NCBI GenBank assembly: GCA_963728565.1
Contig: CAVSLC010000024.1
Coordinates: forward strand, 1 to 48,615
Length of the DNA: 48,615 bases
Direction of reading: 5' to 3'
Origin: an uncultured delta proteobacterium
GTDB lineage: Bacteria; Desulfobacterota; Binatia; UBA9968
How positions within the stretch are numbered: position 1 is the first letter of the stretch; each line of letters starts with the position of its first letter. Below the pieces are notes generated by a model. It was not told the origin of the DNA and made no database searches. It saw only the letters and a program-made list of their open reading frames with translations. Below, one piece after another: positions 5,670 to 43,786 of this stretch. Made by a program: the position numbers and the translations under genes.

Positions 5670-6380
5670 TTAGATCCCTTTCATCAAACCGGCGAGTTCT
5701 GTCTTAGCAGCATTGTGATCCCAGATCTTCTGAACCACCGAGTCTTTGCGGCGCTGTTTCATGACCCTTTGCGTCTCGTCCTCGTTGTAAATCATGACAG
5801 GTCCCAACAATGAAGCTTTATAGAACCGGGACGCGGCTTCTTCCAAGTCCACACATCCGGCGAATACCCATTCGATCGAGTGAGCGACGACCATCGACCC
5901 ATGACCGCGCAGCATCACCGCATCCGCGGCGCCAAGCGCTTTTGCCACTGCGTCGCCCTGCTCTATCGTATGGATCAGTGCTGGGTCCATGTAAACAGGT
6001 AATGGTCCCGCGCCAAAAAAAGCGCCAGGATTGGAAGAAGCTGGATAGAACGGCTTGTCAACCATGCTCAGGGTGGCAACCATGTGATTGTGCAGATGAG
6101 CGACGCTTTGGATATCGCTGCGGGCTCTATAGGCCCGCGCGTGCATATTAACCTCTGACGGCGCTTTGTATTTGCCTTCGATCAATTTCCCATCGAAGTC
6201 GGTGATCACCATATCGTCCGGTTTTACCGTAGCGCGACTTACCGGGTGTGGCAGGATAACAAGGTGATCAGACCCGGGAATACGCGCGCTAATATGACCG
6301 CTGTAATCGACTAATCCGGCGTTGAACAACATGCGGGACGACATAGCCAGCTTTTTTTTGATCTCTGATAATTCCGACAC
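5670..6380 (-). CDS. Class II aldolase/adducin family protein (decarboxylase-like)
   Basis: SGHISARIPG, PSEVNMH, HLH and LRGHG motifs. Confidence 0.88.
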   Translation of the reverse strand: MSELSEIKKKLAMSSRMLFNAGLVDYSGHISARIPGSDHLVILPHPVSRATVKPDDMVITDFDGKLIEGKYKAPSEVNMHARAYRARSDIQSVAHLHNHMVATLSMVDKPFYPASSNPGAFFGAGPLPVYMDPALIHTIEQGDAVAKALGAADAVMLRGHGSMVVAHSIEWVFAGCVDLEEAASRFYKASLLGPVMIYNEDETQRVMKQRRKDSVVQKIWDHNAAKTELAGLMKGI

Positions 6381-27939: not shown

Positions 27940-28066
27940 CTTCGTAGTCTACCCGTTGGAATTAACCGGAGCAAACAAGCCGAATTCGCGCTGCAGCCCA
28001 TCGGGTACTAGTTCAAGGTGCAACCGTGCTCAGTAAAATCGGCCCCCTGCATGCAAGATGGTTGGC

Positions 28067-29632
28067 TTATTTGCGCCAAACTGAAACGTTCGGACTCGTT
28101 CCTCCGTCCGACAGCAATGTCTCGCTGTCGCGAATGACTTTTCCTGAAGAGGTGCGCGGTAGCGACTCACGGATGACAATCTTTTGCGGCACTTTGAAAT
28201 TTGCCAGATTAGCGCGCAGAAAACTTATCAACTCCTTTGGGGCAATCGCATGGCCTGGCCGCGGCACTACCGCAGCACCGATCACCTCACCCCGCTTCGG
28301 ATCAGGGATGGCAAAGACGATGGTCTCTTGCACGTTCGGAAAGCTGTAGATCAGGTTTTCCACCTCGGCGGGGTACACGTTAAGACCGCTGGTGATGATC
28401 ATATCGTCAAGTCGACCGAGATGGATGAAGTAACCGTCCGAGTCCCGTTTGCCGACGTCGCCGGTGTAAAGCCAGCCGTTACGAATGCGCGCTGACGTGG
28501 CCTCTGCTTTGCGAAAATACCCTTTCATCACATGGGGACCACTCGTAATGATTTCTCCCGGTTCATCGACGGGCAGTTCTCTGCCGGACTCATCGACGAT
28601 TCTTACCTCGACTCCCGGTACTGGACGGCCAATACTTCCCAACTTGGCTTCGGCTCGCTCCGGTTCAACCAGGGTGATCATCGGTGAAGTCTCGGTCAAG
28701 CCATAACCCTGGAGAAGTGCGATGTGCGGCTGAGCTGAATGAAATGCACGCAGGAGCGACAACGGAACCGTAGTCCCCATCATGGCGGCGATCTTCACGC
28801 TGCTCGTGTCATATTTTGAAAGATCGCGCACCCCTAGGAGAAGTTGAAAAACGATCGGCACGCTTTCAAAGACACTAATGCGATATTTCTGAATGCCGTC
28901 CAACAAGGTGACCGGGTTAATTTGGTCGAAAATGACCAGAGTGAATCCCTTATCCGCCACTTCATTGCAGACCAACGGGCCAACGATGTGCGACATCGGC
29001 AGGATGCAGCCTCGGATCGTGCTCGAATCGGTGATGCCCATAGCGGTCATGACACGAGGATACTGCGCCAGATTGCGATAACTGAGGACCACGCCTTTGG
29101 GTTCGCCGGTGGTCCCCGAAGTATAAAGAATCAGTGCCTCGTCGTCAGCCTGCAGTTGCGGCGCGAGCGCTGATCGAGGCGGTGCCGCGTAGCGATCTTC
29201 AAAGGACTGTTCGCCCTCGCCTCGGACGATCCATACTGATACTGGGGTGAGCTCTTCGACGACATTGGCCACTTCGGAGATCAGCTGCTTATGGATAACC
29301 AGGAGCTTGAGATCCGCATCGCACAAGACGTCGTGTAACTCCTTGCCCTTTAATCGGGCATCAAGGAGCACGCTCACCGCGCCGATTTTTTGACTAGCAA
29401 AATAGATCAGCGGAATTGCCGCGCAATTGGGTAACAGCACTCCCACCCGATCGCCTTGTTTGATGCCTTCGCTATGCAAGTGACCGGCTAGAGCATGCAC
29501 CCGCGCGTTAAGAACCGAAAAGCTCAGCTCTTCTTCCTTGTCAATGATCGCGATTTTGTTTGGATGCTTTCGTGCTGCTTGGTCGAGCAGCTCCGCGGCG
29601 AAAAATCCTACTGAATCAAGATGGTTTGCCAC
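28067..29632 (-). CDS. Long-chain acyl-CoA ligase / AMP-binding enzyme
   Basis: YTSGTTGEPKG, GYGLTE, TGD, GRLDDMII, PRTSSGK. Confidence 0.9.
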   Translation of the reverse strand: MANHLDSVGFFAAELLDQAARKHPNKIAIIDKEEELSFSVLNARVHALAGHLHSEGIKQGDRVGVLLPNCAAIPLIYFASQKIGAVSVLLDARLKGKELHDVLCDADLKLLVIHKQLISEVANVVEELTPVSVWIVRGEGEQSFEDRYAAPPRSALAPQLQADDEALILYTSGTTGEPKGVVLSYRNLAQYPRVMTAMGITDSSTIRGCILPMSHIVGPLVCNEVADKGFTLVIFDQINPVTLLDGIQKYRISVFESVPIVFQLLLGVRDLSKYDTSSVKIAAMMGTTVPLSLLRAFHSAQPHIALLQGYGLTETSPMITLVEPERAEAKLGSIGRPVPGVEVRIVDESGRELPVDEPGEIITSGPHVMKGYFRKAEATSARIRNGWLYTGDVGKRDSDGYFIHLGRLDDMIITSGLNVYPAEVENLIYSFPNVQETIVFAIPDPKRGEVIGAAVVPRPGHAIAPKELISFLRANLANFKVPQKIVIRESLPRTSSGKVIRDSETLLSDGGTSPNVSVWRK

Positions 29633-29979
29633 AGCGAAAAAGCCCTCTCGAACGGTTTGTACCAGCCCGCGAGCTGCGACAGCTCGCCGCGCTTAAGTTT
29701 TAATTTGCCCTGCTGAGTTGCAAGAAAAGGATCGATGCGGGCTCGAAACACTGCGCTCCACCACTCTTCTGAGCCGCTGATCATAAACTCACCGCTATCA
29801 CCCCGTTCAAGCTGCGTGATCTGGCCAGAGTCAAAACGCACGGTCCAGGCTACGTCCTTTTCTTCGAGAAAAAGCGTCAGGGATGTAGAGAGGCTGGTTT
29901 CTTCCCCGTGAGAACGAAATTGAGAATCATGGTTCGCGCGCTCCACCAAAGCGGACATGTGCTCTTTCGAGAACAACAC
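29608..29979 (-). CDS. SCP2 sterol/lipid-binding domain protein
   Basis: C-terminal part of ORF 29608..30156, likely GTG start at 29979. ISGSEEWW...IDPFLATQQGKLKLKRG is an SCP2-like signature. Confidence 0.72.
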   Translation of the reverse strand: MLFSKEHMSALVERANHDSQFRSHGEETSLSTSLTLFLEEKDVAWTVRFDSGQITQLERGDSGEFMISGSEEWWSAVFRARIDPFLATQQGKLKLKRGELSQLAGWYKPFERAFSLWQTILIQ

Positions 29980-29986
29980 ATAAGAT

Positions 29987-30613
29987 TCACGCGTTTGTGG
30001 ATCGGCGAGGCCCTTTTGTTGTGTTATCCGATCCGCAATCGAAAGCGTTCGATTCACTTCGAAGCTCCATGAAGAACCGGCAACGCACAGCTTCTTCCAG
30101 TAAATCGGTAAGCAAAAAGGTCTCTTGAAGATTCCTGCCGATAGCCACCGTGCCATGACCCTTGATGATGGCGACCGGACGGTACTTTAATTCTTCTGCT
30201 AACCTCTCGGGCTTTGTTACCGTCGGCGTATCCTGGGCGACTATTGGAACTTCGCCAATTGTATACTTCTCCTCAAAACTCACCGGAACGAAATGATCAT
30301 GAGTCAATGAAAATGCCAGAGTCATGGGTGGATGAACATGAACAATAGCTTGTGTCCCGCTGGCTGCATACAGAGCCAAATGCAGAGGCGTCTCGCTCGA
30401 TGCAAGCTGGTCTCGGTTAAGCGGCCTGCCAGCGCCATCAATCCGCACCAAATCTGCCGCTGTTAAAAAACCAAGCGGTGCATGCCGCCCCGTGATCAAA
30501 AACTCGTTCTCTCCAACCCGACAACTGAGATTTCCGCCCCAGCCGCTGATTAGATGCCGGTCAAACAGCAGCTTGCCCCATTTGATCATCTCTCCTTGGA
30601 GCTTCTTCATCAT
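29987..30613 (-). CDS. Class II aldolase (FucA/Ald2-like; methylthio- or deoxy-ribulose-1-phosphate aldolase-like)
   Basis: GGNLSCR, ASSETPLH, HVH, KGHG. ATG at 30613. Confidence 0.85.
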   Translation of the reverse strand: MMKKLQGEMIKWGKLLFDRHLISGWGGNLSCRVGENEFLITGRHAPLGFLTAADLVRIDGAGRPLNRDQLASSETPLHLALYAASGTQAIVHVHPPMTLAFSLTHDHFVPVSFEEKYTIGEVPIVAQDTPTVTKPERLAEELKYRPVAIIKGHGTVAIGRNLQETFLLTDLLEEAVRCRFFMELRSESNAFDCGSDNTTKGPRRSTNA

Positions 30614-30630
30614 TCTAGTCTCAAAATTTG

Positions 30631-32136
30631 TTAAACAACTCCCAGGGGTATGACTTCGCTTTCGAGGGGAAAGATTGAGGCTCCGCTGGGACAAATATTT
30701 CTCCCCATGAACGTCGAGACATCGCTATCAATACTCGATCGCTTAACTGAATCAGACGCCAGCAGTTCAACGGGTACGCCATGGGCGCGCGCCAATTCAA
30801 GTGCCAACAATGAGCCACAGATACCACTGGCTCCCTGCGAGCCGAGCCGGCTATAGTAGAGATAGAGCTTACTGATTTCGTCCCGGGCGAAAAAAAATCC
30901 TATCATGTTGTCAGAGATCAGAGTCGTTGGCAGATTGTGCTCAAGCAGCGCGGGCGCCACGGCATGAACACCCCACATATGCGGCCGCATTTCCGGAATT
31001 AAGAAACGGCTGGCTCGCTCAGCTTTCAGCGCACTGATTAAGTGATCGCGCTGATCTAAAGGCGGGATACCATAAACGAGCAGGTACTTGCTTCCATCCT
31101 TTATCGGGCTAGGTGCTGGGGATCTCTGCTGCTGGTACTTTCGGCGGAAACTTTCAGGTGTGTAGACACCGTCAAACCCAATAAAATACGTAATTAACGG
31201 CGCCGGCGTAACATCAAAAGCAGGATAGCGGACCGCAACGCTAGCGTCGGCTATTAGCTGCCGTCCTTGGAAGCTTAGCAGCTCTGCGCCCGGCCTTTCT
31301 TCGATCGGCACATCGCTCCCTTGCACCAACGAACGCGGGTCTTGAACCAGCACGTGAAATGGAACTCCGTATCGCTTTGCCATTACCGCCAGCGGATAGG
31401 TGCCGACTTTGTTGATGATATCGCCATTCTGTGCCGCACGATCCGAACCGACGACGACTGCATTGGCTTCGCCTCTAGCCATCACCTGGGCGATGGCGCA
31501 ATCGGGAATCAGTGATACGCGAACGCCTCCTCGTGCGAGCTCCCAAGCGGTCAGTCTCGCGCCTTGCAGGTACGGTCGGGTTTCCGTGGCGATGGCGGCG
31601 AAGTCTTTGCTCATCGTCGCGCAATGCTGCGCTATCGCCAACAGTTCTCCACTCATGTTGCAGTGGGTTAAAACCCGCACCGGGTCGGGCAAAAGCTCGG
31701 CAGCGCGCTTTGCTCTTGCACGCCGGGCACGGACGATCTGCGCGGCGAAATCACAAGCTCGCTCGCTAATCCACTCACCGGCACTCACGTTTCCCGGCAG
31801 CTTTTCAAACCACTCTTCGAAATATTGACCCAGTCCGCGGAAATCGAATGTCGGTCGCGCTCGGCAGAACTCGTGGGTCAGTTGATCGATCGATTCTCGC
31901 AGCGGGGGGATTTCCTTCGCGTGATAGTTTTGCGCCAGGAGCGCACCGCTATAGAGGAACGTAAGGACTTGACCAAAGGCACGCGTTTTCATCTCCCGCA
32001 CAGCATCGATGGCCTGCGAAGCATCTTTGACGCTGATATATTGGATCTGCTCGGGAAGCGAAATCTCATCGAGAATTCGAAAACCGCCACCTTCCCATAG
32101 AACCGGCTCAAAAAGCGGGCTTTGTACCGAATTCAT
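30631..32136 (-). CDS. mtnA: MtnA-like ribose-1-phosphate isomerase (eIF-2B family) with an extra degenerate C-terminal copy of the IF-2B domain
   Basis: ARPT, LTHCN, ETRPYLQGARLTAWEL, VGSDR..NGDIINKVGTY, PAFDVTP. The last ~150 aa repeat the domain (EMRPHMWG...LISDNMIG). Confidence 0.8.
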   Translation of the reverse strand: MNSVQSPLFEPVLWEGGGFRILDEISLPEQIQYISVKDASQAIDAVREMKTRAFGQVLTFLYSGALLAQNYHAKEIPPLRESIDQLTHEFCRARPTFDFRGLGQYFEEWFEKLPGNVSAGEWISERACDFAAQIVRARRARAKRAAELLPDPVRVLTHCNMSGELLAIAQHCATMSKDFAAIATETRPYLQGARLTAWELARGGVRVSLIPDCAIAQVMARGEANAVVVGSDRAAQNGDIINKVGTYPLAVMAKRYGVPFHVLVQDPRSLVQGSDVPIEERPGAELLSFQGRQLIADASVAVRYPAFDVTPAPLITYFIGFDGVYTPESFRRKYQQQRSPAPSPIKDGSKYLLVYGIPPLDQRDHLISALKAERASRFLIPEMRPHMWGVHAVAPALLEHNLPTTLISDNMIGFFFARDEISKLYLYYSRLGSQGASGICGSLLALELARAHGVPVELLASDSVKRSSIDSDVSTFMGRNICPSGASIFPLESEVIPLGVV

Positions 32137-32159
32137 AAACGATCTGCAGTTGCACCAGG

Positions 32160-32894
32160 CTAAAAGTACTTGAGAGCTTCGCGGGCAACCGCAATGATTT
32201 TCTCTTCGGCTGCGAAAAACAAAGGGTTACGAAACCCGAATTTGCCGTGCAAACACTCATCCGACACGGCAAGAATGGCACCGGCCTTTTTCTTTCGAAC
32301 TTGAGCGATCGTCAAAAAAGCCGAGGTCACCATGTCGATGCTCGAAACATTTTGTTCTGTGAGTTGCGCGATCAATTCCGGCGTTTCCTGGAATAGCGCG
32401 TCAGTGGTAAAGATCCAGCCTAGATGGAAGCGCACGTGCAGGCTTTCCGCGGCTCGCTTCAATGCATCGACTATCTCGGGGTGAGCCCGGGTGGAAAAAT
32501 TATTCGCCACGTAATAGGGCGATGTGCCTTCACCGCGCAGGGCTCCGGTCACGATGATCAGATCGCCAATCTTCACATGCTCCTGCAACGAGCCGCAACT
32601 TCCGACGCGGATCAGCGCTTGGGCACCGGCACCGCAAAGAATTTCGGTGGTAATCGCCGCGTCCGGAGCGTAGCGCCCGCCATTTCCGACGGTTACTCTC
32701 TTTCCGTCCAGAGTTCCGGTGTGCATCTCGTAATCCAGGAACGTGAAGTTTTTTTGCGGTTGATCCAACATACTCAAAAGCAATTGGCTCCGATCCTTCG
32801 GGCCGGGAATCAAGGCATAAGGACCGAGAGAGTCGGCCTTCAGCCCGAGCATCGAGAGCATTCTTTGCGGTGTAAAGTGAGCTTCTTTGAGCAT
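32160..32894 (-). CDS. Nucleoside phosphorylase (PNP_UDP_1, hexameric Udp/DeoD/MTAP type), divergent
   Basis: IPGPKDR, IRVGSCGSL, GDLII..GALRGEGTS..Y, TTDALF, SIDMV, AVSD. Confidence 0.85.
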   Translation of the reverse strand: MLKEAHFTPQRMLSMLGLKADSLGPYALIPGPKDRSQLLLSMLDQPQKNFTFLDYEMHTGTLDGKRVTVGNGGRYAPDAAITTEILCGAGAQALIRVGSCGSLQEHVKIGDLIIVTGALRGEGTSPYYVANNFSTRAHPEIVDALKRAAESLHVRFHLGWIFTTDALFQETPELIAQLTEQNVSSIDMVTSAFLTIAQVRKKKAGAILAVSDECLHGKFGFRNPLFFAAEEKIIAVAREALKYF

Positions 32895-32897
32895 CGA

Positions 32898-34121
32898 TCA
32901 AACAGCTTGGCCGACAAACTCAATCAGATCTTGGGTCGGCAGAGCAGGCTGTTCAAGCGCATTGAATGAGCGCTGGCATAACGCGCTTGAAGTCAAAACC
33001 AGTTCGGCGCCGGTCTCCTTCGCCTCACGCATACGATCGGTTGCGCTCCATTGAGCGAGGTTGGGATCCGCTTCAGGAACACCGCCACCGCCGCCGCAGC
33101 ACCATGCCCAACGTTGGTTCCGTGTCATTTCCACGACCTCGACTCCAGGAATGGCGCGCAAAACGGTGCGCGGCGCTTCGTATATGCCGCAACCTCGCCC
33201 CAAATGGCAGGAATCGTGGTAAGTAACTTTTTGTCGAATCGGTTTGGTGATTTTCAACTGACCCGCCCGTAAAGCGGCGTCGAGATATTCCACGCCATGC
33301 AAGACTTCCAAATCGGCGGCACCAACTTTGGCATTCTCGCGCCAAATGCGCCGGCAACTGCCGCAAGCAACCACCAGCCTTCGCACTCCACCTTGCGTAA
33401 TTACGGCCAGGTTTTCCTGTTGCAGACGCTCGTACTCGCGCCGAAATCCGAGATCGTAAGCATGCAACCCGCAGCATTTTTCCTGATCACCGAGGATAAC
33501 AAAGTCCTCGCCTGCCTTTTGCATCAGCTTGGCTAAGGCCACGACACCGGCGCGGCCGCTTGGCTGATCGGCGGAGCAACCGGCGAACAACAGCGTCGGG
33601 GCATGTCGCTCAGCAATTTTAGCCAGCCCCAATCCGTCTGCCCAAAAGCCGCGTTCTGCCCTCGTTTGTGACCAGGGGTTATCGTGTTGCTGCAAGCCCT
33701 GGTATAGGTGGCGATGAGCGGCAATCGGACCCTCTTCCTCAGTGATCTGCTCGCGCATGGCAACCGTAATATCCCATGGGCCGTAACCGTCAGCCCGGAC
33801 GCCGCAAAGCTCCTGGCACATCAGGCAGGTTGTACAACTATAGACGATTTCCTTGAGTTCGGGCGTGATCGGGTCAAGCCCGTGAAAGACCCGCTGCGCC
33901 ATCAGCCAACGCGACTTTGGCGTGTGGCGTTGGAACCGATAAAATTCATAAGGCGGGCATTTTTCTTTAGGCCCGGGAACGTCTTCCATCGGATTGGCCG
34001 GGCCGTGCCCATAACAGGAGCCGCATAAAACACAGCCACTGCTGCGCGCATTTAGATCTTTGGCATAAAGCCATTTTTTGACCCGCTCTAGGCCGAAGTT
34101 TTTTTTGGATTCGTCTTGCAC
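32898..34121 (-). CDS. Fe-S oxidoreductase with 2x[4Fe-4S] and CCG domains (GlpC/HdrD/FadF-like)
   Basis: CVLCGSC, CTTCLMCQELC, KCCG, YHDSCHLGR, CCGGGGG. Confidence 0.88.
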   Translation of the reverse strand: MQDESKKNFGLERVKKWLYAKDLNARSSGCVLCGSCYGHGPANPMEDVPGPKEKCPPYEFYRFQRHTPKSRWLMAQRVFHGLDPITPELKEIVYSCTTCLMCQELCGVRADGYGPWDITVAMREQITEEEGPIAAHRHLYQGLQQHDNPWSQTRAERGFWADGLGLAKIAERHAPTLLFAGCSADQPSGRAGVVALAKLMQKAGEDFVILGDQEKCCGLHAYDLGFRREYERLQQENLAVITQGGVRRLVVACGSCRRIWRENAKVGAADLEVLHGVEYLDAALRAGQLKITKPIRQKVTYHDSCHLGRGCGIYEAPRTVLRAIPGVEVVEMTRNQRWAWCCGGGGGVPEADPNLAQWSATDRMREAKETGAELVLTSSALCQRSFNALEQPALPTQDLIEFVGQAV

Positions 34122-34160
34122 AGTATGAAGCGTGTAAGATCCGCAGCTGTTTTGAAGAAA

Positions 34161-34210
34161 TGAAATCTTAAGACATCAATTGTATAGCCCCAGACAAACT
34201 GGCGTGTCAA
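34161..34210 (-). promoter_or_regulatory. Operon promoter with a putative MarR operator
   Basis: Minus-strand TTGACA...TATACAAT, followed directly by the imperfect palindrome TGAaaTCTTAAGAcaTCA (34161-34178). Confidence 0.55.
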
Positions 34211-34214
34211 CAAA

Positions 34215-34673
34215 CTAGCTTAGAATGGCGAACTCGGCGTGATTCAGCTTTCGTAGCAAGGCGGAGAGTTCTTTCTGATGCGGAAGATCGAGCGAAGAAA
34301 AGATTGCAGACACACTTCTCTCAAAGAGAGGAATCGTGGTCTTGTATAAGTTGGCTCCTTTATCTGTCAATGTTACGTGAACAACACGGCGGTCGGTTGA
34401 GTCGCGCTTTCTTACGACCAGTTTTTTTTGCTCAAGCCGGTCAACGATACCGGTAAGATTGCTGACCGTCACCATCATCTTAGCGCCGATCTCGCCAAAT
34501 GGGAGGCTGCCGGCGTAACCGATGGTTGCGAGTACGTAGAACTGTGGCGGTGTTAAACCGACTTTGCCAAGATCAGATTCCAACTTTTTATGCGACGAGA
34601 GATTAAACCTTAAAAACCGCACCCAGAGACTCGTGCTGTAGGAAGCAAAAAAGGGACGTTTTTCGACTCGCAC
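34215..34673 (-). CDS. MarR family transcriptional regulator
   Basis: GLTPPQFYVL, NLTGIVDRLE, RDSTDRR..HVTLTDKG. Confidence 0.92.
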   Translation of the reverse strand: MRVEKRPFFASYSTSLWVRFLRFNLSSHKKLESDLGKVGLTPPQFYVLATIGYAGSLPFGEIGAKMMVTVSNLTGIVDRLEQKKLVVRKRDSTDRRVVHVTLTDKGANLYKTTIPLFERSVSAIFSSLDLPHQKELSALLRKLNHAEFAILS

Positions 34674-34812
34674 GTGGCCAATTTAGTCGGCGTCAAATGA
34701 AAAAGCAATAAATAGCTCGTCGTTTGCGAATTGAGAGTTGATTCGTGGAAGCGGTTCCGCGGCTTGACTCCTAAAGCCCGGCGGCTTAACTGGAATTACA
34801 ATCGAAGTAAAA

Positions 34813-35547
34813 ATGAGACTCCATATACTGGGCTGCGGTGATGCATTCGGCAGTGGTGGGCGTAATCAAAGTGCATACTTAATCGAGGCCCCGGACCGCC
34901 TGTTCTTGCTGGACTGCGGCGCAACTTCTTTGCTCGCGCTCAAGAAGCTCGGATTTAATTCGGGCCAACTCGATGCCATCTTCTTGAGCCACCTGCATGG
35001 CGATCACTTTGGCGGCTTGCCTTTTTTCTTCATCGAATTTCTGTATGAGAAGAGCCGCGAAAAGCCGCTGCATGTGGCCGGGCCCGTGGGAACAGAAGAA
35101 AAAGCTCGTGCCGTCTTCGACCTGATGTACGGAAAGGGCACCAAGGCCGGAGATCTTGCAAGTATCTGCTTCCATGTTTTAGAGCCTGAGAAAACTTCAA
35201 CGATTCAGGGAATTGAGGTATTTCCATTCCGCGTGCCGCATCAGGTGAACGAAATATCGCTCGCGTTGAAGGTTAGTTATAACGGCAAGCACGTTTTGTT
35301 TTCGGGAGATTCGGCCTGGACAGATGCGTTTCTAGAGCACGCCCGGGAGGTCGACCTTTTCGTCTGCGAGTGTACCTTCTACGACCGGGAGACCTCGAAC
35401 CACATGAGCTACCTACAGTTGAGAGAACAATTGCCACGTTTGAGCTGCTCTCGAATCATACTGACTCACATGGGCTACGACATGCTCGCTCGTAGCGCCG
35501 AAATTTCCTGCGCGATGGCAGAAGATGGAATGGTCGTGGAGATTTGA
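34813..35547 (+). CDS. MBL-fold metallohydrolase (RNase Z/BN-like)
   Basis: LGCGDAFGSGGR, SHLHGDH, SGD, LTH. Confidence 0.88.
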   Translation: MRLHILGCGDAFGSGGRNQSAYLIEAPDRLFLLDCGATSLLALKKLGFNSGQLDAIFLSHLHGDHFGGLPFFFIEFLYEKSREKPLHVAGPVGTEEKARAVFDLMYGKGTKAGDLASICFHVLEPEKTSTIQGIEVFPFRVPHQVNEISLALKVSYNGKHVLFSGDSAWTDAFLEHAREVDLFVCECTFYDRETSNHMSYLQLREQLPRLSCSRIILTHMGYDMLARSAEISCAMAEDGMVVEI

Positions 35548-41591: not shown

Positions 41592-41692
41592 CAACCAAGC
41601 TAGGGGTGTCTACTTAAGTCGGACTGAGAGCCTGCCACGCGCAGGTAACCCTTCGAACCTGATCCGGTTTGCGCCGGCGTAGGGAAGCGTGA
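41592..41692 (+). ncRNA. TPP riboswitch
   Basis: GGGGTG...CTGAGA...ACCCTTCGAACCTGATCCGGTTTGCGCCGGCGTAGGGAAG, upstream of thiS-thiG-thiE. Confidence 0.93.
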
Positions 41693-41740
41693 AAGTCATG
41701 GTCCCGTTTTGATTCTTTAGGCAGACGGGACAAGCTTGAG

Positions 41741-43710: not shown

Positions 43711-43786
<76 letters not shown>

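Follow-up and report, generated by a model that had tools for sequence, protein, structure and literature searches.

Hundreds of enzymes use S-adenosylmethionine (SAM), and what becomes of the nucleosides left over is still being mapped. The present analysis concerns a gene row from an uncultured delta proteobacterium of the class Binatia that may process a nucleoside of this kind. It lies in a stretch of 48,615 nucleotides (contig CAVSLC010000024.1, positions 1 to 48,615, assembly GCA_963728565.1), called the window throughout, and it occupies positions 28067-34673 of the minus strand. An open reading frame (ORF) list combined with Pfam matches returned seven ORFs there, with the order, domains and coordinates that a sequence-only reading of the same DNA had assigned; its count of six tightly packed genes behind marR stands as regards ORFs and spacing, but not for the aldolase and the SCP2 protein, which form a single fused gene (aldolase::SCP2) in relatives. 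The features are as follows.

34215..34673, minus strand: MarR-family regulator, first gene of the row (PF01047, E 2.2e-16)
32898..34121, minus strand: HdrD/GlpC/TfrB-like iron-sulfur (Fe-S) protein, here the CCG protein (PF02754 in two stretches, E 1.2e-29; PF13183, Fer4_8, E 1.9e-6)
32160..32894, minus strand: NP-I nucleoside phosphorylase, DeoD/Udp-like, hexameric-type (PF01048, PNP_UDP_1, E 2.9e-34)
30631..32136, minus strand: paralog of the MtnA-family sugar-1-phosphate isomerases, 501 amino acids (aa) (PF01008, IF-2B, E 4.4e-56)
29608..30694, minus strand: class II aldolase::SCP2, as ORFs 29987-30694 and 29608-30156 (PF00596, E 1.4e-36; PF02036, E 2.9e-4)
30042..30046, no strand: extra base splitting aldolase::SCP2, seen as a gap against relatives and public contigs
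28067..29632, minus strand: AMP-forming acyl-CoA ligase of the ANL family (PF00501, E 1e-85; PF13193, E 3.7e-18)
34813..35547, plus strand: metallo-beta-lactamase (MBL)-fold hydrolase divergent from MarR (PF00753, E 6e-18)

The CCG and phosphorylase genes are 3 nt apart, phosphorylase and isomerase 23 nt, and MarR and the CCG gene 93 nt, while the SCP2 and ligase ORFs overlap by 25 nt.

Conservation of the row in Binatia and in distant phyla

A search of species-representative genomes with the isomerase gave 407 relatives, the best 80 loci of which were examined: 72 from Binatia-type species and 8 from Planctomycetia or Omnitrophota, the latter with isomerases 41-44% identical to that of the window. 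Wherever a Binatia-type locus could be judged, the phosphorylase (69/69), the aldolase (71/71) and the ligase (69/69) were present, together with SCP2 in 68 of 70 loci, the CCG protein in 62 of 67 and MarR in 61 of 62. Among 41 related genomes surveyed, the long isomerase of the row occurs in 22 of the 24 belonging to the window's family, in three of five from a second family (plus two further fragments) and in none of 11 from a third; it was likewise found in 0/200 genomes sampled from the rest of the phylum (E <= 1e-100). Two unpublished genomes (G018 and G012) were used only in the genome counts and in one alignment row.

The loci from the distant phyla are stronger evidence of coupling than synteny within the lineage. 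One of the eight is cut (L125); the seven uncut ones again hold the phosphorylase, the isomerase and the aldolase::SCP2 fusion, which in the Omnitrophota locus L129 is one ORF carrying both the Aldolase_II and the SCP2 Pfam domains (L129:9431-10456). L127, L129, L131 and L132 carry an orthologous ligase, which is absent from L126 and L128 within the stretch examined; conversely, the best match of these ligases in the window's own genome (G000) is the ligase of the row, with 290-292 bits against at most 243 for any other. In six of the seven uncut loci (L126, L127, L128, L129, L131 and L132) the cluster includes an aldehyde dehydrogenase. It is of the non-acylating type, its nearest sequence relatives being betaine, phenylacetaldehyde and ALDH1/2 enzymes, and the nearest solved structures are generic ones that give no specificity. 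The dehydrogenase lends direct support to the earlier proposal that the released aldehyde is oxidised and then CoA-activated, and the ligase match agrees with it.

The companion proposal, that SCP2, ligase and Fe-S genes stay beside the trio of phosphorylase, isomerase and aldolase, holds for SCP2 and ligase in the lineage as well as in the two other phyla. The coupling of the Fe-S protein and MarR, in turn, is found in most Binatia-type loci, but the CCG gene is lacking in 5 of 67, neither protein had a tblastn match in the distant loci, and no CCG or MarR domain appeared in the ORFs scanned there, which did not include every neighbouring ORF. Both proteins are specific to the Binatia-type lineage, the CCG protein as an accessory.

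Five of the seven uncut distant loci also carry a radical SAM gene no more than about 2 kb from the cluster, RlmN-like in L127 (where it lies 3' of the cluster ligase) and B12-binding in the other four, as follows.

L126:6491-7966, L128:5569-7032, L129:12492-13961 and L132:12034-13503: BchE/HpnJ-like B12-binding radical SAM proteins, with scores below the cut-offs

In L126 and L129 this gene is followed by genes for a PanE-like reductase and a FabF-like ketoacyl synthase. The window's genome holds no close homolog of the distant radical SAM genes, identities reaching at most 26-34%. In L128 and L131 the genes for the aldolase fusion and the aldehyde dehydrogenase flank two others, one of the LsrF family and one for a Zn-dehydrogenase. 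Genomes of 1.2-3.1 Mb are among those that carry the cluster, including Omnitrophota genomes of 1.2-1.9 Mb.

The enzymes and their canonical counterparts

Gene content was compared in the window's genome, which is 80.55% complete, and in five distant genomes. The former encodes a true MtnP (G000:C13, 316 bits against a cut-off of 275), away from the operon, and a true MtnA elsewhere (436 bits against 279), neither of them in an informative operon; MtnP directly follows the radical SAM methyltransferase RlmN (G000:C13:136302-138239, equal to L045:409-2346). All five distant genomes have a canonical MtnA above the cut-off in addition to the cluster paralog below it, a look at its neighbours giving only ThiL, and each holds exactly two PNP_UDP_1 genes. 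In the phylogeny against MtnA, one of several comparisons that had been suggested, the cluster isomerases form a clade apart: a branch with 100/100 support separates 16 of them, from three phyla, from 6 canonical MtnAs of the same genomes. Since canonical MtnA is present in all six genomes and MtnP in that of the window, the operon is a paralogous second system.

The isomerase exceeds canonical MtnA by about 165 aa. Its catalytic part spans roughly aa 1-335, and fused to it, at roughly aa 345-501, is a second IF-2B Rossmann half-domain in degenerate form, which matches aa 185-266 of the same protein (E 1e-5) and lacks the catalytic Asp position. In the structure model (pLDDT 88.3, pTM 0.89) the tail is predicted to pack against the body as a Rossmann-like half-domain, and the top fold match is B. 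subtilis MtnA (2yvk, TMt 0.81). A separate ORF of 161-187 aa corresponds to the tail in L126, L129 and L132; none was seen in L127, L128 and L131. The protein scores 219 bits on TIGR00512, below the cut-off of 279, but keeps the THCN and G[SA]DR..NGD motifs; Cys159 (THCN) and Asp232 (GSDR), which we take to be the MtnA catalytic residues, are invariant in 15 sequences. In the alignment it lacks the 7 aa that canonical MtnA has after THCN.

The phosphorylase, announced by the sequence-only reading simply as a nucleoside phosphorylase, does belong to the NP-I family, yet NCBIfam places it near DeoD and Udp and not with MtnP, whose model (TIGR01694) is absent from its matches. Its best matches in the Protein Data Bank (PDB) are uridine phosphorylases, the S. 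solfataricus methylthioadenosine phosphorylase 1jds and the purine nucleoside phosphorylase (PNP) of T. thermophilus. Aligned to E. coli DeoD, it keeps the equivalents of Gly20, Arg24, Arg87, Ser90 and Asp204 along with the N-terminal His, reads DMV where DeoD and MtnN read EME, and has no equivalent of Arg43. If these residues play the roles that we assume from DeoD, the enzyme may be read as purine-type with an altered sugar site.

As in DHAP (dihydroxyacetone phosphate) shunts, a class II aldolase adjoins the isomerase (PF00596, E 1.4e-36). Its best NCBIfam model is PRK08660, 'aldolase' (137 bits, below the cut-off of 203), and the HxH, HG and SSE motifs, to which we ascribe the roles presumed for class II aldolases, are readable in its sequence. 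The window has a second class II aldolase-family gene at 5670-6380 on the minus strand (PF00596, 114.9 bits), and the genome has six in all. Aldolase and SCP2 share a single ORF in 69 of the 72 Binatia-type loci by ORF clustering (median 333 aa), and the fused ORF is at least 300 aa long in 65 of them. At E <= 1e-10 the fusion finds 1169 homologs, none with more than a generic name, and it forms ESM Atlas clusters in Omnitrophota and Binatota; the cluster proteins all figure in databases as 'hypothetical' or 'fuculose-phosphate aldolase'. Whereas the SCP2 Pfam match is marginal (21.6 bits against a cut-off of 21.3), a structure model built from 14 homologs (pLDDT 94.5) matches T. thermophilus SCP2 in Foldseek (2cx7, TM 0.86, E 2e-9), followed by UbiJ-SCP2 and then by the lipid-binding C-domain of alkylsulfatases, and the conserved QQGKLKLKRGE motif fits the GKLK-type C-terminal motif; the predicted fold thus confirms the domain assignment.

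In the window itself a single surplus base in an A3/T3 run (about 30042-30046) breaks up the fused gene when compared with the three closest relatives (L053, L054 and L055, 98-99% identical over 201 bases). This base is absent, at full depth, from all three public runs that cover the site (X1, X4 and X15; the contigs come from DNA in two of these runs and from an RNA library in the third). The same runs show single-base indels at 34222 and near 28059-28091; at 34222, two codons from the MarR stop, public contigs hold one more base, and the 3' end of MarR may therefore be misassembled. Another single-base difference between the window and public metagenome contigs of close relatives stands at 30633, and isomerase and PolA matches are likewise split in a close relative (L055/L039), which suggests that indel errors are present in these assemblies. 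Because the runs differ by other single-base indels too, an assembly error at 30042-30046 is more likely than a dead gene. The true start of the fused gene is probably near 30613.

The ligase has the AMP-binding N-domain and the C-domain, with SSGK near its C-terminus. Every NCBIfam match falls below its cut-off, PRK06187 included (432 bits against 476). The best PDB match is 8wev/8weu, a feruloyl- or fatty-acyl-CoA synthetase, and FadD13 and the oxalyl-, malonyl- and o-succinylbenzoyl-CoA ligases are also near, all below family cut-offs. The protein reads QGYGLTE, presumably at the position whose Trp restricts the pocket of acetyl-CoA synthetases to acetate. In 25 of the 72 Binatia-type loci the next gene downstream of the ligase encodes a HetI/Sfp-type 4'-phosphopantetheinyl transferase (e.g. 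L060:12173-12898), and given this neighbour the ligase could load a carrier protein in some lineages; in the window the gene downstream of the ligase, and hence of the row, is DNA polymerase I (PolA, by Pfam) and not the transferase.

The CCG protein combines two CCG domains (PF02754), both with readable motifs, with a ferredoxin-like dicluster domain (PF13183). Its best NCBIfam match is TfrB (137 bits, below the cut-off of 385), all equivalog models scoring far below their cut-offs, and its neighbours in the window include no gene for a partner flavoprotein or a membrane cytochrome. On the far side of MarR, the MBL-fold gene resembles RNase Z and cyclic-nucleotide phosphodiesterase with scores below the model cut-offs; an ORF of its cluster is present in 52 of the 72 Binatia-type loci, so that it is a conserved neighbour of uncertain membership in the system. 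We found no riboswitch at the cluster in the window or in six distant loci, and no inverted repeat in 34600-34900 that could be a MarR operator. Contigs from the RNA libraries of two studies overlap parts of every gene of the row, a weak sign of its expression, and several bins of the row have no such coverage. Elsewhere in the window are a thiamine pyrophosphate (TPP) riboswitch (41592-41702, plus strand, 70.3 bits against a gathering threshold of 54.3) and a tRNA gene (43711-43783, plus strand).

Known systems and the proposed route

In the DHAP shunt as described, removal of the base yields a sugar-1-phosphate, which MtnA isomerises and a class II aldolase cleaves to DHAP and an aldehyde (PMC10986504). 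The E. coli cluster is given there as mtnK-mtnA-ald2, and general enzymes are reported to turn its aldehydes into ethanol, acetate or 2-methylthioethanol (PMC10986504). The shunt of R. rubrum and extraintestinal E. coli (MtnP, or MtnN with MtnK; MtnA; Ald2) and the route predicted for the row of the window agree in their three types of reaction and in the order of these. They differ in that the phosphorylase of the row is DeoD/Udp-like instead of MtnP, that its isomerase scores below the cut-off of the MtnA model and has an extra half-domain, and that its aldolase is fused to SCP2 in a cluster with a CoA ligase and, in the other phyla, a dehydrogenase.

A second close relative is the three-gene cluster DrdK-DrdI-DrdA for 5-deoxyribose salvage (PMC6079011). 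It pairs a dedicated paralogous MtnA-like isomerase with a class II aldolase, serves a radical SAM by-product and stands beside methionine-salvage genes, a plan that the row would share; it differs in entering through a kinase acting on the free sugar where the operon of the window enters through a phosphorylase, and, as there described, in having no SCP2, dehydrogenase or ligase where the row of the window has both SCP2 and ligase. The match between the aldolase of the window and the B. thuringiensis aldolase 6btd is weak (E 6.8e-6). The fluoroacetate route of Streptomyces cattleya runs through fluorinase, phosphorylase, isomerase, aldolase and aldehyde dehydrogenase, the same chain, dehydrogenase step included, as the cluster form of Planctomycetia and Omnitrophota; to our knowledge it has neither a CoA ligase nor SCP2.

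Two further systems touch single steps. HpnG is a PNP-family enzyme whose substrate, a nucleoside that bears a large lipid at C-5', loses its adenine, which shows that lipid-tailed adenosines exist in bacteria (PMC13459092). The phosphorylase of the window, however, reaches only 29.5 bits on the HpnG model, whose cut-off is 187, and whereas hopanoid synthesis keeps the ribose carbons, the cluster of the window would cut them off. Autoinducer-2 breakdown employs the 3-hydroxy-5-phosphonooxypentane-2,4-dione thiolase LsrF, which, like the proposed route, releases DHAP and an acyl-CoA from a five-carbon 1-phospho-ketose; it is not part of the operon of the window, it is above the cut-off inside the cluster in L131/G044, and its link to 5-deoxyribulose-1-phosphate is one that we infer. 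A search of the open literature, outside which most subscription journals and supplements lie, returned no description of the aldolase::SCP2 fusion, the long isomerase or the extension by dehydrogenase and ligase, and a term search inside PMC6302742 found no description of the cluster. Among known systems the DHAP shunt and DrdK-DrdI-DrdA come nearest, and the operon looks like an uncharacterised second form of the bacterial breakdown of leftover SAM-derived nucleosides.

The reading that we prefer, with a probability of roughly 0.55, is that the operon is a second, extended DHAP shunt which operates beside the canonical MtnP and MtnA and ends in an acyl-CoA. The DeoD-like phosphorylase would strip the purine base from a 5'-modified nucleoside to give a pentose-1-phosphate, which the MtnA paralog would turn into a pentulose-1-phosphate; the class II aldolase would then cleave the latter to DHAP and an aldehyde bearing the former 5' substituent, the apolar part of which could be held by the SCP2 domain at the aldolase C-terminus. 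An aldehyde dehydrogenase, in-cluster in Planctomycetia and Omnitrophota and presumably encoded elsewhere in the genome of the window, would oxidise the aldehyde, the ligase would convert the acid to an acyl-CoA, and MarR would control the row in the Binatia-type lineage. The gene logic of phosphorolysis, isomerisation, aldol cleavage, oxidation and CoA activation is well supported; the reactions themselves, the direction of flux and the substrate are what we infer from it.

As for that substrate, one tentative candidate is a 5'-deoxyadenosine made from SAM whose apolar 5' group exceeds that of 5'-methylthioadenosine (MTA) in size, the ordinary by-products 5'-deoxyadenosine and/or MTA are an equally tentative one, and plain ribonucleosides are improbable, the remaining odds going to some other compound. 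A bulky apolar group is favoured because the SCP2 fusion has been kept in three phyla, because a second phosphorylase/isomerase pair stands beside the canonical one, and because the ligase is not of the acetate type, if the pocket rule assumed above holds. Even so, that the 5' substituent would be lipophilic is a notion taken from the predicted SCP2 fold alone.

Competing explanations and significance

Several findings weigh against a second, extended shunt. The aldolase::SCP2 gene of the window is frameshifted as assembled; two Binatia-type loci of the 70 judged (L101 and L103) carry the aldolase only, hence SCP2 is dispensable in that family; and unrelated upstream housekeeping genes are syntenic as well, in 33-42 of the 72 loci, so that synteny inside the lineage argues only moderately for coupling. 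The Binatia-type operon contains no aldehyde dehydrogenase, the best homologs in the genome of the window being 37% identical and on other contigs, and the kept N-terminal His, which in DeoD presumably binds the 5'-OH, fits an unmodified nucleoside. Lastly, in four of the five small distant genomes the cluster aldolase is the sole class II aldolase (PF00596); none of the five has acireductone dioxygenase (ARD), a RuBisCO-like protein is missing from these and from the window's genome (0/6), and four of the five lack an LsrF-like protein. The cluster aldolase may in consequence be a general aldolase for MTA and 5'-deoxyadenosine.

The last point leads to the explanation that survives best among the alternatives, though we consider it rather doubtful, namely that the row adds accessory parts to a DHAP shunt of the ordinary kind, acting on 5'-deoxyadenosine and/or MTA: the acetaldehyde or 2-(methylthio)acetaldehyde formed would be oxidised and become acetyl-CoA or methylthioacetyl-CoA, and SCP2 would be a structural or aldehyde-shielding appendage that binds no lipid. 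Besides the lone aldolase and the missing ARD and RuBisCO-like proteins in genomes that do hold canonical MtnA and an MtnP-like gene, it can draw on the radical SAM genes beside five of the seven uncut distant clusters and on the LsrF-family protein and Zn-dehydrogenase inside those of L128 and L131, the G044 copy of the former scoring 358.8 bits against a cut-off of 297. From a drawing of the structures, oxidation of 5-deoxyribulose-1-phosphate at C4 would give the LsrF substrate, and thiolysis would then release DHAP and acetyl-CoA. LsrF-family proteins are above the cut-off in two of the six genomes (G000 and G044). In that of the window such a thiolase (419 bits against 297) lies beside a Zn-dehydrogenase at G000:C5:132493-134519 (L137:5497-7523), the pair being 52% and 55% identical to that inside the Omnitrophota cluster. 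The same neighbourhood holds two further class II aldolase-family genes, genes for SsuA-like binding proteins and an aldehyde:ferredoxin-oxidoreductase-like gene. The pair could be a thiolytic bypass from 5-deoxypentulose-1-phosphate to DHAP and an acyl-CoA. Against an ordinary shunt stand the ligase, which on the assumed rule reads QGYGLTE in place of the acetate-limiting Trp, the retention of the SCP2 fusion across three phyla, and the redundancy of a second pair in genomes that already possess canonical MtnP (that of the window) and MtnA (that of the window and 5/5 distant ones). Characterised DHAP shunts use one enzyme set for both MTA and 5'-deoxyadenosine (PMC10986504).

Catabolism of ribose from plain purine nucleosides without phosphopentomutase would proceed from ribose-1-phosphate through ribulose-1-phosphate to DHAP and glycolaldehyde, and on to glycolate. 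It gains from the failure to find DeoB in any of the six genomes at E 1e-10, from the N-terminal His of the DeoD-like phosphorylase, from a weak match of the aldolase to the haloarchaeal ribulose-1-phosphate aldolase (51.8 bits, where the cut-off is 300), and from the missing loop after THCN in the isomerase, which ribose-1,5-bisphosphate isomerases, as we believe, lack as well. We nonetheless regard it as improbable: glycolaldehyde and glycolate give no reason for SCP2 or for a dedicated non-acetate CoA ligase, the isomerase scores 219-239 bits on MtnA models against 120 on the ribose-1,5-bisphosphate isomerase model, and so patchy a distribution (0/200 other genomes of the phylum) would be odd for basic nucleoside use. 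Less probable still is operation in the synthetic direction, in which an acyl-CoA-derived aldehyde would be joined to DHAP, isomerised and coupled to a base to give a C-5'-alkylated nucleoside lipid, for even though the aldolase, isomerase and purine phosphorylase reactions are reversible and SCP2 and ligase would suit a lipid input, the dehydrogenase of the distant clusters is of the non-acylating type, betaine, phenylacetaldehyde and ALDH1/2-type enzymes work towards the acid, and no acyl-CoA reductase was seen in the distant loci scanned.

Particular lipophilic and other nucleosides fared variously. Adenosylhopane and the futalosines, which had been named earlier as candidates, find no support in gene content, adenosylhopane being rejected as an endogenous substrate: HpnH is above the cut-off in 0/6 genomes, squalene-hopene cyclase was not found in the window's genome (80.55% complete), adenosylhopane is further disfavoured by the occurrence of the cluster in genomes of 1.2-3.1 Mb, and for futalosine and aminofutalosine, examined in the window's genome, the best MqnE-like gene is CofH and PF02621, the model for MqnA/MqnD, gives only 30 and 20 bits. 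The CofH gene itself (G000:C10:263871-264947, L135:1354-2646; 468 bits against a cut-off of 374) indicates that the organism probably makes deazaflavin F0/F420. Halogenated nucleosides were rejected, a gene of the fluorinase/SAM_HAT family being present in one of six genomes and on a contig other than that of the cluster, and so was S-adenosylhomocysteine (SAH), as AhcY exceeds the cut-off in 4/4 distant genomes tested and SAH would hence take its usual route; AhcY was not found in the window's genome, given its 80.55% completeness.

There is also a slim chance that a second, extended DHAP shunt processes lipid-tailed adenosines formed when a radical SAM enzyme puts the 5'-deoxyadenosyl radical onto an unactivated lipid double bond, as HpnH does with diploptene. 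Three ribose carbons would then leave as DHAP, and the lipid would gain two carbons ending in an aldehyde, to be oxidised and CoA-activated; the BchE/HpnJ-like radical SAM protein encoded beside the cluster in four of the seven uncut distant loci would be the candidate adenosylating enzyme. If this were true, an inert alkene would become an acyl-CoA, with the ribose of SAM donating the two added carbons.

Taken more broadly, what emerges is a second phosphorylase/isomerase/aldolase system in three phyla, with a lipid-carrier domain on the aldolase and, as predicted, a dedicated route to a CoA thioester. Its cluster proteins are small and soluble-looking, and hence directly testable in vitro. 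Either an unrecognised 5'-modified nucleoside would be made in these cells, or known by-products would be handled in a carbon-conserving manner, yielding DHAP and an acyl-CoA in place of excreted alcohols.

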